Assembly (NCBI GenBank): GCA_037305845.1 | Contig: CP147778.1 | Coordinates: 2,752,001-2,816,000, forward strand | DNA length: 64,000 bases | Direction: 5' to 3' | DNA from: Candidatus Freyarchaeum deiterrae | Lineage (GTDB): Archaea > Asgardarchaeota > Jordiarchaeia > Jordiarchaeales > Jordiarchaeaceae | Shown here: positions 4,093-13,863 of the stretch, piece by piece | Layout of the letters: every line of letters begins with the position of its first letter | Numbering within the stretch: the first letter of the stretch is position 1 | Program-made: the position numbers and the translations under genes | The notes under the pieces: generated by a model | What the model was told of the DNA's origin: nothing | Databases searched by the model: none | Seen by the model: only the letters and a program-made list of their open reading frames with translations

Positions 4093-6066
4093 CTGTCTGA
4101 TTTTAGGACTGAAAGCGATTATTTATCGTTAATTAAGCCTGTAAAGTGGAGTCTGCGTGAAAGAGCAACTCGGGTTTTTACGTATCCTTTTAATCCCCCG
4201 TCTGCTAGGACTTTGGCCCTGACGGGATTATTATTAAGCCTAGTGATGGGCATGCTTTCGTATGCTCCTAGGCGGGAATTGGACTTAATCGATATAATAG
4301 TCTACGGAATCGAAGTTGGTGTTTTAGTGTTCGCCTTTCCGATGCTGGTCTCTTCCTTTTTGCTGTATGCTGTGGGAAAAATTAAGAGCCCAATATTTTC
4401 ATTATCCAGATCCGTGGCCTTTTCTTTAATTTTTGTTGCCGTATGGGAATTTTTCTTTTTCATAGGATCATTTGCTTACGCTTTTTTCGGTATATCCGAA
4501 ATTTTCATAATAGTAACCCTCTTTGGAGCAGCATTCATTTATGCGCTCTGCTTAGTAATCTTAATCACTATTTCCACATTCGGAAATCCACTCAGCATAC
4601 TGCTCTCAAGCATCCTCCCCCTCCTAGGTATAACCAGCTTCTCCCTAATTTTGGGCGGCTTAACAACCACTTATTTATTCCCCTTGTTAAGGGACTTCAT
4701 TATCGCAGCAATAATTCTTTCAGTTCCAAACTTTATCGCATTCCGCATAGTTGAAAAACCCATTAAAAGGAAACTGGGAGTCAGCGGTTATGACTTAATC
4801 CGCGGCTTTTTCTTGGAGTGGATTCTCAAAAACCCACGTAAAATTGAAAGCGTTACCGACCAATTTGGAGAGAAAGCAGACCTACCAGCGCTTCTAGTCG
4901 CTTTCAGATCCAAAAAGGATCAAAAATTGAAGGGAGTAATTTTTTCCTCCTTCATACATTACGGGCCCTTCAAGGAAACCGGTTCATCGGTTCTACCGCG
5001 TTTACTTGCGCAAAAAATCGAAGAAACAAATAGCACTATTCTTTCCGTAACTCACGGAGCATGCACCCATGGTCAGAACCTTTGCAGCATGAGAGAAACT
5101 CAGAAAGCAATTAAACAAACTATTCAAAAACTGAAGCAAATCAAATTCGACAATGCAGCTACACCGTTTATCCGAGTTCAAGAGAAGGAATTTAAAATAC
5201 TCTCCGCAGTTTTGGGAGACACCGTAATTATGATTTCAACCAGATCCCCGGAGATAACTGACGACATCAATTTGGAAGTAGGCTTGTCTGTCTTGGAGAG
5301 GGCGCACGAGGCGATGGAAAAGAATGGTTTCGAAACTAAAAGGGCATTTCTTATAGATTCCCATAACTGCATTCTAGACTCTGAAGTCCTAGTTGAACCG
5401 AACACTCCAGCTGCAGAGAATCTTCTAAAAGCCACCGAGAAATCAATCCAAAAAATGTCTACAACAATTAACACCCCAAAAATAAGATATGGCGTATCAA
5501 GAACAAAATTTTCAGATATTTACCGCGATTACGGATTGGGAGAACTAGGAATAACAGTTAACATTATTGAAACTTCATGGTCGGATGGCACGAAACGCGG
5601 CATTCCCAAAAGACGCGAAGACAAGTGTTGGAAACAGAGAACCGCCCTAGTTGTCATTGATGGAAACAACATGATAATAGGACTCAGAGATAAAATAATT
5701 AATCGTCTCCTAGACGAAAAACTCGTGGACGAAGCTGAGATTCTAACCTCTGACACACACACGGTGAATGCTTCTTCTATCCAACAACCTGACTATTATC
5801 CCGTAGGCAGAGTAATAAATCACGAAGATTTAATCGAAGAAGTAGTAAAAAACACGAAAAGAGCCCTCGAAGATTTGGAAGAAGTAGAAATTGGAACAAA
5901 AGTCTTTAAAATAAACCGCCTGAAAATTTGGACCAATGAAAAGTTATACAAGTTTTTTGAAGGGATTGAAGAAACGATAAACACACTGAAAAAAATTATT
6001 CCACCATTTTTTGTCAGCGGAGTCTCCTTAGCCTTACTCTCACTAGTACTCTCAATAGGAGTTTAA
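4093..6066 (+). CDS. DUF2070 family membrane protein
   Basis: N-terminal TM helices, then HYGPF, HGACTH, DSHN, DGNNM and TSDTH motifs. The frame is open back to CTG 4093, which has a GTGAGGT RBS. Confidence 0.82.
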   Translation: MSDFRTESDYLSLIKPVKWSLRERATRVFTYPFNPPSARTLALTGLLLSLVMGMLSYAPRRELDLIDIIVYGIEVGVLVFAFPMLVSSFLLYAVGKIKSPIFSLSRSVAFSLIFVAVWEFFFFIGSFAYAFFGISEIFIIVTLFGAAFIYALCLVILITISTFGNPLSILLSSILPLLGITSFSLILGGLTTTYLFPLLRDFIIAAIILSVPNFIAFRIVEKPIKRKLGVSGYDLIRGFFLEWILKNPRKIESVTDQFGEKADLPALLVAFRSKKDQKLKGVIFSSFIHYGPFKETGSSVLPRLLAQKIEETNSTILSVTHGACTHGQNLCSMRETQKAIKQTIQKLKQIKFDNAATPFIRVQEKEFKILSAVLGDTVIMISTRSPEITDDINLEVGLSVLERAHEAMEKNGFETKRAFLIDSHNCILDSEVLVEPNTPAAENLLKATEKSIQKMSTTINTPKIRYGVSRTKFSDIYRDYGLGELGITVNIIETSWSDGTKRGIPKRREDKCWKQRTALVVIDGNNMIIGLRDKIINRLLDEKLVDEAEILTSDTHTVNASSIQQPDYYPVGRVINHEDLIEEVVKNTKRALEDLEEVEIGTKVFKINRLKIWTNEKLYKFFEGIEETINTLKKIIPPFFVSGVSLALLSLVLSIGV

Positions 6067-6081
6067 AAAACTTAAATTTAT

Positions 6082-6909
6082 GTGATAATTTTGTCAAACA
6101 CTAGAAATACCGAATTTGAAAAAGATTATAGAAAAGCCTGGCAACTAGCGGTGGAAGCCATCCGCTTAGAGGAGCAAGACCAATTCGAATACGCCAGCAA
6201 GAATTACACTATGTCAGCAGAAATACTCAACAAATTACTGGAAAACCCACTGAAACCAGAATTAAGTAGTCAAATCCGAAATAAATACTTCGAGTACCAA
6301 GAAAGAGCGGAACTGCTGAAGAGCATTTCCGAAAAACTGGGAAAAGAAAAAACCGCTAAAAAACCCGAGACAACATCAATAGTTCTACACGGACCAGAAA
6401 TTGGATTAAAAGTAATCGACATACTGAAACACGCAACTAATGAGATAATAATTATGAGCTACCTCTTATTCGACGTAAAAACCATAAGTGCTGAAAACAA
6501 AACCCACAGAATAGACCTTCTCGACACCATTATTCAGAAATCGAAAAACGGCGTAAAAATCAGAATAATCACCTCTCCCCCAGACGACCAACTAATAGGG
6601 AATAGCGCCGAAAAGCAGGGTAACTCCATAAAAAGGCTACTGACCGAGTCCCATATCCAAATTAAGCTTTGCAACTACGCTCACTCCAAATTCATAATCA
6701 CAGACAATTCAACCATTCTGCGTGGTTCCGCTAATCTCACTAGGAGTGGGTTGTCAGGTCAAGCCGATATAGCTGAAATAACCAACGATGAATACATTAT
6801 CAATTATTACTCCACACTCTTCAACGAACGTTGGAGAAACGTGCACAAAAGTTGCAGAGATTGCAACGAAAATGCATGCATTAAAGAGTACTCGATTTCC
6901 AAACATTAA
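6082..6909 (+). CDS. MIT domain + phospholipase D-like (HKD) domain fusion
   Basis: N-terminal A..LA..AI..E....F..A...Y...E.L......K..EY..RAE.LK is the MIT three-helix pattern. C-terminal HSKFIITD + GSANLT is the HxKxxxxD/GSxN motif. Confidence 0.8.
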   Translation: MIILSNTRNTEFEKDYRKAWQLAVEAIRLEEQDQFEYASKNYTMSAEILNKLLENPLKPELSSQIRNKYFEYQERAELLKSISEKLGKEKTAKKPETTSIVLHGPEIGLKVIDILKHATNEIIIMSYLLFDVKTISAENKTHRIDLLDTIIQKSKNGVKIRIITSPPDDQLIGNSAEKQGNSIKRLLTESHIQIKLCNYAHSKFIITDNSTILRGSANLTRSGLSGQADIAEITNDEYIINYYSTLFNERWRNVHKSCRDCNENACIKEYSISKH

Positions 6910-6963
6910 GAAAAGTCAAAACACCAAGATATTAAAGAAACAGAAAAAGTATACTCCACCAAT

Positions 6964-7722
6964 TTACAGAGCCAGTCGTCCACTTAGAATACTTTTAGCT
7001 ATCGAGAACGTTTCCCTAACCTCTTCAAAGGTGGCCACGCCAACAGCTGCCGAATCTATACCTTCACAGGAAAAAACATAATCCAAAGCCTCTCTGGGTT
7101 CAAGACGCCCGGCGGCTAAAGGCTTCATAGCTATAAATTTTTTCTCTCTTCTCAGAACCGTATCCATAACTTTTTCTTTTTTCCCCATAAGGTATCCGAG
7201 GGCGTTAAAGGGAAGTAAAACAACCTGAAAATCGAGTTTGCTTTCTAATAATTCGGGTAGGGTGCGATCCGGTTTATGGGTAGCCACACCGGGAATAAAC
7301 CCTGTATCTCTAATCTTTCCAAACCACGATTCTAATACCTTAAAGTTTAACCGGTCAGTTTCTTCGCCGTGAAGCAAAACAACTTTTGTGGGCAAGCTGC
7401 TCAGACAATCCAGTCCTTCCTCCGGTTTGTCGAAAGGTAGACCACCCACAATTACTAGTTCAACACCTGTCTCAACCTGAGCCTGTCTAACTGCCTCAGC
7501 AATTTCACGATAGGCAACAAGTTGAATCCCTCTCACTCCAACATTGATGGCTTCAATTACTAAATCTGTTATGTTGCGGGGATTCTCGAAAAATCGCTTA
7601 TAATACTGATAGGCCCGGACGCCGAACTGGCCGGCTCCTAGGAAAGGCGATGTTCCAAGGAGTATTCTGGGGATTCTTTCGCCCTCAACTTCAAAAGCTG
7701 GGAAGATTTCTTCAGTTTTCAC
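6964..7722 (-). CDS. Aldo/keto reductase-like TIM-barrel protein
   Basis: PRILLGTSPF, GVATH, LLPFNALG and IAMKPLAAG motifs. Likely start is GTG 7722. Confidence 0.72.
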   Translation of the reverse strand: MKTEEIFPAFEVEGERIPRILLGTSPFLGAGQFGVRAYQYYKRFFENPRNITDLVIEAINVGVRGIQLVAYREIAEAVRQAQVETGVELVIVGGLPFDKPEEGLDCLSSLPTKVVLLHGEETDRLNFKVLESWFGKIRDTGFIPGVATHKPDRTLPELLESKLDFQVVLLPFNALGYLMGKKEKVMDTVLRREKKFIAMKPLAAGRLEPREALDYVFSCEGIDSAAVGVATFEEVRETFSIAKSILSGRLAL

Positions 7723-9398: not shown

Positions 9399-10133
9399 TT
9401 GAAACAGGTGTACGCGATTTTTATGTGCCCTAAATGTGGCAGGTATACTTTCTCGCCAGCAGGGCAGAAAACAAGGCTGTGCGGCAACTGCGGTAGTATA
9501 ATAAAAGTTGACCCAATGAACTCCCAGATTGTTAACGATTCAAAAGAAGCTTCGATGCTGGTACGAAAGTACAACGCTGGAAAAGACTCTAAAAGCTTCC
9601 TCCAAGCCGTGGAAGCATCACGAAAAGAAGTGGAAAAACTCCTCCCAAAAGAATCAGTAAAAATCGATGAGCTAACCGAAGAAGAAGAAACAATTTCCAG
9701 CTCAAGAATCCAGAGACTCACTCTCCTCCTAAGAGAAAACTGCATCAAGGAACCAGTAAGCTTCGACCAAATTGAAGAACTATGCCAAAAATACAAGTTA
9801 GACTTCGAATGGGTAAAAGAAAGACTAACCCAGCTCGGAAAAGAAGGAAACATAATATTCCCAACACCCTGGACAGTGAAGTACATCGGCACCGCAGACT
9901 CGGGATACACAGCCATATCCAAAACCACCAGACCCCAAATGCAGATAAAAGGAGCCAGCAAAGCCCTCACAAAAATACTAACCCAATCAAAAGAACCACT
10001 AGCCGAAAAAGAAATAATGCAAAAAATGGAAATCGCAGGATACAACCCCGAAGAAACCCAAGAAACCCTAAAAAAACTCCACAAGTCCGGCGAAATAATA
10101 GAACCCCGACCAGGATACTACCACACAGTATAA
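9399..10133 (+). CDS. DUF1922-like Zn ribbon + two winged-helix domains
   Basis: CPKCG..CGNCG, followed by two wH-terminal motifs (LGKEGNIIFPTPW and LHKSGEIIEPRPGYY). Confidence 0.65.
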   Translation: MKQVYAIFMCPKCGRYTFSPAGQKTRLCGNCGSIIKVDPMNSQIVNDSKEASMLVRKYNAGKDSKSFLQAVEASRKEVEKLLPKESVKIDELTEEEETISSSRIQRLTLLLRENCIKEPVSFDQIEELCQKYKLDFEWVKERLTQLGKEGNIIFPTPWTVKYIGTADSGYTAISKTTRPQMQIKGASKALTKILTQSKEPLAEKEIMQKMEIAGYNPEETQETLKKLHKSGEIIEPRPGYYHTV

Positions 10134-11153: not shown

Positions 11154-11876
11154 TTATTCTAGTATTTTGGGTTTCCTTCTCATTGGTTTAAAGTAGTTTC
11201 CAACCCTTTCAACTAATCTGACATGGGTAATGAGCGTTGACTCCTTTGCTCTGCTAGAGAACCATAGGTGGGGAGGGTTATCGGTGATAGTAATTCTCAC
11301 GAAATCGTCGCCCAGCTTGTTCATCATTTTCATGAATTCACCGTCTTGGAATAATCCCTCAACTCTATCCGGTTCAGAAGCCTTCACTATGTATTTTTTA
11401 TTCATTTTTGAGGTTTCGACTTTCTTTAAATCTTTAAGAACCATTTCATCTTCCTTTGTAATCTTCTTACTGGCAGAATTAATGATTTCAAGTTGAAGCT
11501 TAGGCCTAGATATGAAGCTAGCTTTTGTGAGGAGCATATCATAATTAGGTCTGAACCGCGAGATTATGTGGTGGATGAGGTTCTCTCTATTTATCAGGTA
11601 GAGTTCTATTTTCCAGTCCCTAAGCTGAACATCACTCTTGGTGGTTAGAAGATTTATTACAAAACCGCTGGTTCTGAAAATTTGCATTTTGCTTTTTTCA
11701 TACTTTTTACCGAGCTCTGTTTTCAGAATAGCTCCAAACCTATTTATTAGCATCTTGTTGTATCTCCGCCCCCAAACAAATACTCCCACCAAAACTCCAA
11801 AGATACCTATTATGACAAATAATGCAATCGTACTGTAGAAATCTATAGCACTGGCGATATCAGACACGAAAGCCAC
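11154..11876 (-). CDS. Single-TM protein resembling CCDC47/DUF1682 (PAT complex subunit)
   Basis: TM followed by WGRRYNKML, IELYLINRENLIHHIISRFRPNYD and FVRITITD, colinear with CCDC47 motifs as recalled. Confidence 0.6.
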   Translation of the reverse strand: MAFVSDIASAIDFYSTIALFVIIGIFGVLVGVFVWGRRYNKMLINRFGAILKTELGKKYEKSKMQIFRTSGFVINLLTTKSDVQLRDWKIELYLINRENLIHHIISRFRPNYDMLLTKASFISRPKLQLEIINSASKKITKEDEMVLKDLKKVETSKMNKKYIVKASEPDRVEGLFQDGEFMKMMNKLGDDFVRITITDNPPHLWFSSRAKESTLITHVRLVERVGNYFKPMRRKPKILE

Positions 11877-12972: not shown

Positions 12973-13863
12973 TTAATCTTTATATTTGCCGGTTAGCCAG
13001 TTTACCTTCTTTTTACAAACTGGGCATGTGTCCAATCCTGGATCGACATTAACTGTACTTCCGCAGGCTGGGCACACCATTTCAACTTTTTCTCCTATGA
13101 TGAATCCCGCTGGGTTTTTCTTGAATTCTTCTTCCTTTTTTCTTTTTTTAGCATCGTCCCTATCCTTCATCATTTGAGACATCTTTCCCGTAAGTGATGT
13201 GTCTTGTTTCGTTTTGCCCGCTTCTACTTCCTCTTTGGCTACGGCTTTGGAAGTGGTTTTAGTGGAGGTGGCTTTGGATTGGGAGCCTGGTTCTGGTGGA
13301 TTTAGTACGCTCCATATTTTTTTGGATAGTGATTTTTGCTTAACTTTTCCTGTTGTGGTTGTCTCTTCTCCTTGCATTATGATATCGTAGGCGGGGATGT
13401 TTTCATCTTCATCTGCTTGGGCTCTTTCAGCTACCGTTAGAGGTATAGGCTTTAGTTCCATTTGTTTATAGTTTTTGATTAGCCTTATCAGTCTGCTCAT
13501 GTCTTCGGTTTCCATACCCTTAATAGCAATGTGATCCGATTTGAATGACGACCATTTACTCTCCTTTGGGTATTTTATTTCTAGGTGTTTTTCCATTAGT
13601 CCTCCAATTGATACATCCTCTATATTTTCGAAGAAGACGCTGAATCCTCCGAATATATCCTCCTCTGGAGAGGTGCTCATTATCTTAGCTAAGGTTCCCT
13701 TGTCTCCATAAAATATGACGCGCATGTTCGTCAAATACAAGTCGCCTTTATTGGTTTGGAGGTTGAACTCATCGGATTCTCCGACACTTATACCGTGTAC
13801 GACATGTAACAGTTTTTCACCTTTGAGCAGAAATGGGGGAGTTTTTCCATGAATTTTTATCAT
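12973..13863 (-). CDS. PH-like (GRAM/GLUE/bPH) domain protein with C-terminal double Zn ribbon
   Basis: LLKGEKLL..GDLYLTNMRVIFYG PH/GRAM signature, low-complexity linker, then CPACG..CPVC. Confidence 0.7.
   Translation of the reverse strand: MIKIHGKTPPFLLKGEKLLHVVHGISVGESDEFNLQTNKGDLYLTNMRVIFYGDKGTLAKIMSTSPEEDIFGGFSVFFENIEDVSIGGLMEKHLEIKYPKESKWSSFKSDHIAIKGMETEDMSRLIRLIKNYKQMELKPIPLTVAERAQADEDENIPAYDIIMQGEETTTTGKVKQKSLSKKIWSVLNPPEPGSQSKATSTKTTSKAVAKEEVEAGKTKQDTSLTGKMSQMMKDRDDAKKRKKEEEFKKNPAGFIIGEKVEMVCPACGSTVNVDPGLDTCPVCKKKVNWLTGKYKD

Follow-up and report, generated by a model that had tools for sequence, protein, structure and literature searches.

The window analysed here, a stretch of 64,000 nucleotides from Candidatus Freyarchaeum deiterrae (contig CP147778.1, positions 2,752,001 to 2,816,000), encodes at positions 6082-6909 of its plus strand a protein of 275 amino acids that joins an N-terminal MIT domain to a single domain of the phospholipase D (PLD) superfamily. 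We refer to it as MIT-PLD. The host genome, a closed single contig of 3,576,204 bp, belongs to the Jord/Freyarchaeia lineage of the Asgard archaea.

The coding sequence runs from a GTG at 6082 to a TAA at 6907-6909 with no interruption. An alternative TTG at 6091, three codons downstream, would give a protein of 272 amino acids, and the database entry P0003 begins there. The GTG was kept as the start because the ATG with which several homologues in alignment A1 begin (MINLSNN...) is aligned to it. Non-saturated orthologue pairs inside the genus gave a ratio of nonsynonymous to synonymous substitution rates (dN/dS) of 0.10-0.17 and the open reading frame is a genuine, constrained coding gene under purifying selection, far beyond a chance frame. 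No signal peptide or membrane helix is visible in the protein sequence, for which a cytoplasmic two-domain enzyme would be the best explanation. Close homologues carry the labels Jordarchaeaceae, Freyarchaeota, Freyrarchaeum or Lokiarchaeia metagenome-assembled genomes (MAGs), and the existing NCBI and JGI labels of homologues read only phospholipase D-like or cardiolipin-synthase-like. DNA of the region (window positions 5500-7500) occurs in wetland and freshwater-sediment metagenomes; the sequencing runs listed for it are all of DNA and none of RNA.

Domain architecture and catalytic motif

The MIT domain is a three-helix bundle encoded at 6094-6348 (residues about 5-89). Pfam MIT (PF04212) matched residues 17-81 over profile positions 2-66 of 66 with 35.9 bits against a cut-off of 30, and the match at the gene in the whole-genome scan reached 38.6 bits. 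The helix-3 signature EYxxRAExLK is conserved in the MIT domains of MIT-PLD proteins. An AlphaFold2 (AF2) model built from 15 homologues, with a mean predicted local distance difference test score (pLDDT) of 76.5, places helices at residues 2-28, 32-49 and 56-86 (pLDDT 80-94) and, beyond a short linker, an alpha/beta domain. Both parts of the model were compared, independently of Foldseek, with 48,161 PDB representatives, from which 50 rows were listed by Z. The N-terminal bundle matched the MIT domains of Calpain-7 (12.4), Sulfolobus Vps4 (11.5), yeast Vps4 (11.4) and MITD1 (10.7, root-mean-square deviation (rmsd) 1.4), and also those of SKD1, LIP5, VPS4A, katanin, USP8, NRBF2, spartin and ULK3. 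The N-terminus forms an asymmetric bundle of three helices and can be superposed on MIT domains of solved structure; together with the Pfam match above cut-off, this upholds the MIT domain proposed in an earlier note, which had been made from the DNA sequence alone.

The PLD domain, of the Nuc/NucT-like type, is encoded at 6367-6897 (residues about 96-272). Pfam PLDc_2 (PF13091) matched residues 112-251 with 72.7 bits against a cut-off of 27, and the chain contains only one HKD motif, read from the sequence as H201-S-K203-FIIT-D208-NSTILR-G215-S216-A-N218 (6682-6735, numbered from the GTG at 6082). The strings HSKFIITD and GSANLT quoted by the earlier note lie exactly at these nucleotides. The domain thus combines a hidden Markov model (HMM) score above cut-off with the complete HxK(x)4D(x)6GSxN pattern of the PLD superfamily, and the proposed single PLD domain with an intact HKD site stands. 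Across alignment A1, which holds 15 sequences, the Lys, Asp, Gly, Ser and Asn of the motif and a downstream Glu are invariant, and the His is nearly so. In the window's clade the PLD domain is basic (isoelectric point about 8-9).

Among the matches listed, the alpha/beta domain (residues 93-269) scored best with NucT (17.0, rmsd 2.1, 142 aligned residues). Further matches listed were Nuc (16.8), the TrmB sugar-binding domain (15.1), Zucchini/PLD6 (14.6), FAM83 (14.6) and phosphatidylserine (PS) synthase (12.6), and the two-HKD phospholipases D among them reached 9.5-12.3. A second structural list for both domains gave the same picture as the first.

Predicted activity and recruitment to ESCRT-III

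[quoted passage not shown] By analogy with its structural neighbours, the C-terminal single-HKD domain of Nuc/NucT/Zucchini shape would pair as a homodimer, and two HKD motifs would then form one active site. One His would attack the phosphodiester and give a phospho-histidine intermediate, a step taken over here from Nuc, for which this mechanism is established.

On the substrate, the comparisons incline us towards nucleic acid, since nucleases come out as the best neighbours in structure as well as in sequence, the lipid-acting PLDs listed are two-HKD chains with lower scores, relatives of the gene adjoin DNA-handling genes, and MIT is fused to a NucS_C nuclease domain in another Asgard genome. 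Single-HKD PLD enzymes of Nuc-like shape are mostly nucleases. Where the earlier note had left the choice between phospholipase and nuclease, the nuclease side is now favoured and the lipid-modification side has become the less likely one, with a lipid substrate to be considered a tentative second candidate. In its fuller form, this alternative would make the protein an ESCRT-III-recruited phospholipase or lipid transphosphatidylase, altering head groups at scission necks (e.g., towards phosphatidic-acid-like cone lipids). We consider this unlikely: the low scores and the two HKD halves per chain of the lipid PLDs count against it, as do the neighbour genes of the relatives, which handle DNA and not lipids, and the unambiguous nuclease fold of the second Asgard MIT fusion. 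Furthermore, MIT-PLD is without a membrane anchor or lipid-binding module.

The likeness to known nucleases is one of shape and chemistry class only, and MIT-PLD is no member of the named NucT, DpdK or DrmC families. Nuc (Salmonella pKM101) and NucT (Helicobacter pylori) are single-HKD PLD nucleases with the same fold at only 16-17% identity; their alignments show no MIT domain and no four-Cys cluster, whereas MIT-PLD has both and is without a secretion signal. Zucchini/MitoPLD (PLD6) is targeted by a mitochondrial membrane helix, in place of which MIT-PLD carries the MIT domain, and the zinc site of Zucchini/MitoPLD lies elsewhere in the fold than the Cys cluster of MIT-PLD described below.

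As regards recruitment, the ESCRT-III partners implied by the earlier note are present in the genome with conserved tails that resemble MIT-interacting motifs (MIMs). One Vps4 of 388 amino acids with MIT and AAA domains is encoded at 1.52 Mb, and two ESCRT-III proteins above the Pfam Snf7 cut-off, one Vps20/32/60-like (212 amino acids) and one Vps2/24/46-like (208 amino acids), are encoded at 2.27 Mb. Across Asgard families, the tail of the Vps2-like protein shows an invariant LP element and a strongly conserved terminal ELEKxIKKLKEE helix, and MIM-like motifs have been described in Asgard ESCRT-III (PMC7240154). All characterised MIT domains bind ESCRT-III-type tails (PMC9477494). By analogy, docking of the MIT domain on the MIM-like tails of both ESCRT-III proteins is the most likely mode of action that we predict, and it would bring the enzyme to membrane scission sites. 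The closest MIT domain by sequence is that of Vps4/CdvC: the genome's own Vps4 MIT shares 28% identity with that of MIT-PLD (hhalign E 7.8e-6), and the MIT part of the family profile matches yeast Vps4 MIT with E 1e-6. In Vps4/CdvC, however, the MIT domain sits on an AAA+ ATPase, whereas in MIT-PLD it sits on a PLD domain and has Gln, Lys or Arg as groove residue.

This groove residue is among several observations that weigh against an ESCRT-III-targeted nuclease. Leu64 of Vps4 is a key MIM1 contact; the residue aligned with it is Gln in MIT-PLD (EYQERAE) and Gln, Lys or Arg across the family, so that canonical type-1 MIM binding is uncertain with a polar or charged residue at this position. 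The genome's own Vps4 has Val there. Vps4 (1.52 Mb), ESCRT-III (2.27 Mb) and MIT-PLD (2.76 Mb) are not linked, the gene neighbourhoods of MIT-PLD differ between families, and no conserved operon partner was found among the relatives' loci compared. The scores for the curated NCBIfam models lie far below their cut-offs (NucT 29.9 bits against 211, DpdK 31.8 against 100, DrmC 29.4 against 133), and a basic PLD domain is as compatible with anionic membranes as with nucleic acid. Finally, the gene appears to be dispensable, or at least able to be lost, because the copy in one of the genus genomes (L014, G119:C88:32578-33399) is interrupted early on by an in-frame TAA, has part of its PLD domain scrambled and shows a Cys-to-Tyr exchange in the Cys cluster; it is probably a decaying gene.

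Some of these points feed a second alternative, in which ESCRT-III is not the ligand of the MIT domain and the protein is a PLD nuclease of conflict/defence or DNA-repair type, with the helical N-terminus acting as another kind of adaptor or as an autoinhibitor. Besides the polar Leu64 equivalent and the missing linkage to ESCRT genes, it draws on the similarity of the PLD domain to the defence nucleases DrmC, DpdK and MkoC, and on the other members of the Cys-cluster subfamily, which have unrelated N-termini and adjoin nSTAND NTPases or a CHAT protease. In addition, the homologue P0020 lies amid many small open reading frames together with PCNA, RPA-like and Hjc genes, possibly in a mobile element. 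The scores of the defence models, however, amount to generic PLD similarity, and no conserved defence partner genes adjoin MIT-PLD. With a MIT match above the curated Pfam cut-off, a conserved helix 3 and ESCRT-III-type tails as the ligands of every characterised MIT domain, we hold this alternative to be quite unlikely and retain the ESCRT-III-targeted phosphodiesterase.

A complex prediction of the MIT domain (residues 1-92 of A1) with the Vps2-like tail (residues 150-208 of A3), run without controls, gave 0.18 against a mark of 0.32 and speaks neither for nor against binding. The MIT domain of 85 residues and the two ESCRT-III tails form a small, tractable biochemical pair, and a positive interaction would extend the recruitment code of ESCRT-III and MIT to archaea. 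Should binding fail, MIT-PLD would simply be a nuclease peculiar to its lineage that has borrowed a helical domain.

In eukaryotes, ESCRT-III tails recruit a series of MIT-tagged enzymes, among them Vps4, spastin, AMSH, USP8, calpain-7, ULK3 and MITD1. In archaea, Vps4/CdvC is, to our knowledge, the only established MIT client. If the predicted docking is true, enzyme recruitment by ESCRT-III tails beyond Vps4 predates eukaryotes, and if the activity is true as well, the prokaryotes most closely related to eukaryotes would connect ESCRT scission with the processing of nucleic acid or lipid.

The Asgard subfamily and its relation to MITD1

MIT-PLD carries four conserved cysteines. Cys197 (6670-6672) lies four residues before the catalytic His, and Cys258, Cys261 and Cys266 form a C-terminal CxxCx4C (6853-6879). 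None of the four varies in alignment A1 or A2, and Cys197 is present in all Asgard relatives. In 12 representative clusters (P0019-P0028, P0030, P0035), a CxxCx3-4C spacing follows 60-61 residues after the first Cys; the records to which members belong are Loki-, Thor-, Heimdall-, Hel- and Jord/Freyarchaeial. A profile search of 1.84 billion representative proteins returned only 16 matches below 1e-10, the named ones all from Asgard MAGs (Loki-, Thor-, Heimdall- and Helarchaeota), and the four-Cys signature is not found in the more distant matches of this search. To judge by these alignments, MIT-PLD belongs to a small, Asgard-only PLD subfamily marked by four cysteines, which is defined here. 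The cysteines probably form a Zn-binding cluster, in a part of the AF2 model that is not confident (pLDDT <50); zinc held by them would pin the C-terminal tail beside the catalytic strand. The N-termini vary within the subfamily and comprise MIT, other helical domains and, in a Heimdall protein of 700 amino acids, double zinc ribbons; a Loki member of 1331 amino acids is also included.

In a scan of 400 Asgard genomes, full-length MIT-PLD was present in 6/6 genomes of the genus and in 18/19 genomes of a second family (f14), probably Thorarchaeia. No full-length copy was found in the five genomes of the sister family in the same order (0/5). Full-text literature searches combining MIT and PLD with Asgard or archaea revealed no description of this architecture in archaea, and the text and accessible supplements of a comprehensive ESCRT survey mention no MIT-PLD protein (PMC10936438). 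New here are the MIT-PLD architecture in archaea and the Cys-marked subfamily; the kinds of parts are already known, and no new category arises.

Comparison by hhalign shows the f14 orthologues to be homologous to the window's family across both domains (probability 99.9, E 3.9e-31, 247 columns). Their motif reads H-F-N...D...G-T-A-P/A/S-L-T in 14/14 genomes examined, with the Lys and Asn of the HKD site lost and the His, the Asp and the four Cys retained. Their PLD domains are acidic to neutral, whereas those of the window's clade are basic, and their stem branch in a tree of 43 PLD-domain rows is long (1.04). The N-terminal bundle is modelled with confidence and matches MIT domains among other bundles. 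A second paralogue is found in the same genomes, with its motif intact (HIK...GSANFT); compared with the MIT profile, the N-terminus of this intact paralogue (P0025) gave an hhalign probability of 0.2% and is not detectably MIT. On motif grounds, the family contains a natural pair of active and inactive members, of which the f14 form appears catalytically dead. Such a pair is a natural example of a catalytic PLD fold becoming a scaffold.

The earlier note had taken MIT-PLD for a candidate archaeal relative of human MITD1, an MIT plus PLD-like protein that acts with ESCRT-III in abscission. The common two-domain layout was borne out, the specific kinship was not. In the form of a true relationship, MIT and PLD would have been fused once in Asgard archaea and inherited by eukaryotes, with the HKD site lost afterwards. 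Domain order and size agree with it, and a sister clade already without catalytic residues fits. Foldseek, one of the comparisons suggested beforehand, aligned both domains to the MITD1 structure 2ymb with E 2.5e-7, template modelling (TM) scores of 0.31-0.36 and rank 17. When the whole protein was compared by features of a protein language model, MITD1 clusters came out as the nearest large ones, at 0.86 with 151 features in common, by the calibration of the tool only a lead. When residues 96-275 were taken alone, with the MIT domain removed, 30/30 nearest clusters were short bacterial PLDc_2 proteins (0.92-0.93).

The further evidence on the PLD part also speaks against inheritance. Human MITD1 has a MIT_C domain without HKD, whereas MIT-PLD has a PLDc_2 domain with intact HKD. 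A suggested check for MIT_C (PF16565) came out negative: no match was found in the protein at E<=1 or, when the whole genome was scanned at E<=10, at its gene, and 0/400 Asgard genomes had MIT_C above cut-off. The PLD domain groups with Nuc-type enzymes, which is half of the outcome that the earlier note had itself named as counting against its proposal, and the PLD part of the family profile matches MitoPLD/Zucchini. A published analysis reports that the domains closest to MIT_C are ParB-associated and BrxL PLD-like ones, with a different D/E...HDR site (PMC12065111). The MIT domain, too, is nearer to Vps4 than to MITD1, whose MIT follows yeast Vps4 in the profile search with E 1.8e-3. The distribution is patchy, with two main families of about 33 in the 400-genome scan and the sister family devoid of it. 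The MITD1 C-terminal domain is absent among the 50 structural rows listed by Z, which is no evidence of difference. In the 43-row tree, from which MITD1 and MIT_C sequences were left out, the deep branches are unresolved, and a single origin of the MIT fusion is neither supported nor rejected.

We regard common descent with MITD1 as improbable on this evidence. The MITD1-like layout is most likely a parallel fusion, in which a Vps4-type MIT domain joined a Nuc-type PLD domain within Asgard archaea. The inactive f14 form would then parallel animal MITD1 by following the same path from an active to an inactive protein.

Further MIT fusions and gene neighbourhoods

Most of the Asgard genomes scanned have only the MIT domain of Vps4. 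The second fusion of MIT to a nuclease is a protein of 228 amino acids (L059:591-1274:-, G307:C6:565390-566073) that scores 37.6 bits with MIT, above the cut-off, and 35 against 24 bits with NucS_C, a PD-(D/E)xK domain. The full-length form was found only in this genome, and an N-terminal fragment is present in a congener. Together with the inactive sister clade, this fusion adds to the case for recruitment before eukaryotes. A wider and rather speculative extension is that Asgard ESCRT-III tails form a hub recruiting MIT-tagged nucleases, both PLD/Nuc-like and NucS-type, which would cleave nucleic acid caught in division necks or vesicle necks. If true, this would be an archaeal counterpart of midbody-tethered nucleases, and the dead, probably Thorarchaeial form would show a MITD1-like scaffold arising from an enzyme.

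The scan also revealed MIT-scoring proteins of other kinds. Proteins of 264-284 amino acids in family f13 (L056:577-1428:-, L057:594-1421:-, L058:636-1427:-) have MIT scores of 36-39 bits and a long proline-rich linker, and end in a conserved helical domain of about 100 amino acids without Pfam or PDB match. Two proteins of 575-600 amino acids (L060:372-2171:-, L061:328-2052:-) show a MIT-scoring N-terminus followed by about 15 tetratricopeptide (TPR) repeats. In the window's genome, a protein of >560 amino acids (L003) has a weak MIT-like N-terminus (24 bits, below cut-off).

Among the neighbourhoods, those of the f14 orthologues are uniform. At the loci L015-L028 (e.g., L015:1450-2274:+), all genes have a GTG or TTG start and lie divergent from an XPB-type helicase gene, with DUF790 beyond; DUF790 beside an XPB helicase is presumably of Bax1 type. 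P0020 (L043:5086-6771), a high-GC homologue with intact HKD and a weak MIT score (17.9 bits), has an RPA-like OB-fold gene directly upstream, with PCNA and Hjc close by. The many small open reading frames of this region are accompanied by helix-turn-helix regulators, and it may represent a mobile element or a virus.

In the window, a DUF2070 membrane protein (4213-6066, plus strand, 346.8 bits) ends 16 nucleotides before the MIT-PLD start. It lies directly upstream only in the three genus genomes G000, G118 and G119, and not at the loci L007 or L008. The flanking proteins of 219, 267, 200 and 174 amino acids belong to no Pfam or NCBIfam family, and Rfam and tRNA scans revealed no RNA genes in the window. 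A protein of 244 amino acids at 9399-10133 (plus strand) combines a DUF1922/TFIIB-type zinc ribbon with a weak C-terminal match to the archaeal MCM winged helix, and in relatives it likewise lies near MIT-PLD. On the minus strand, a protein of 240 amino acids (11154-11876) scores 27.2 against a cut-off of 27.7 bits with CCDC47, a subunit of the PAT complex, and a protein of 296 amino acids (12973-13863) scores 23.2 against 24.1 bits with the Vps36 GLUE domain, and also matches GRAM and ends in a zinc ribbon at the C-terminus.
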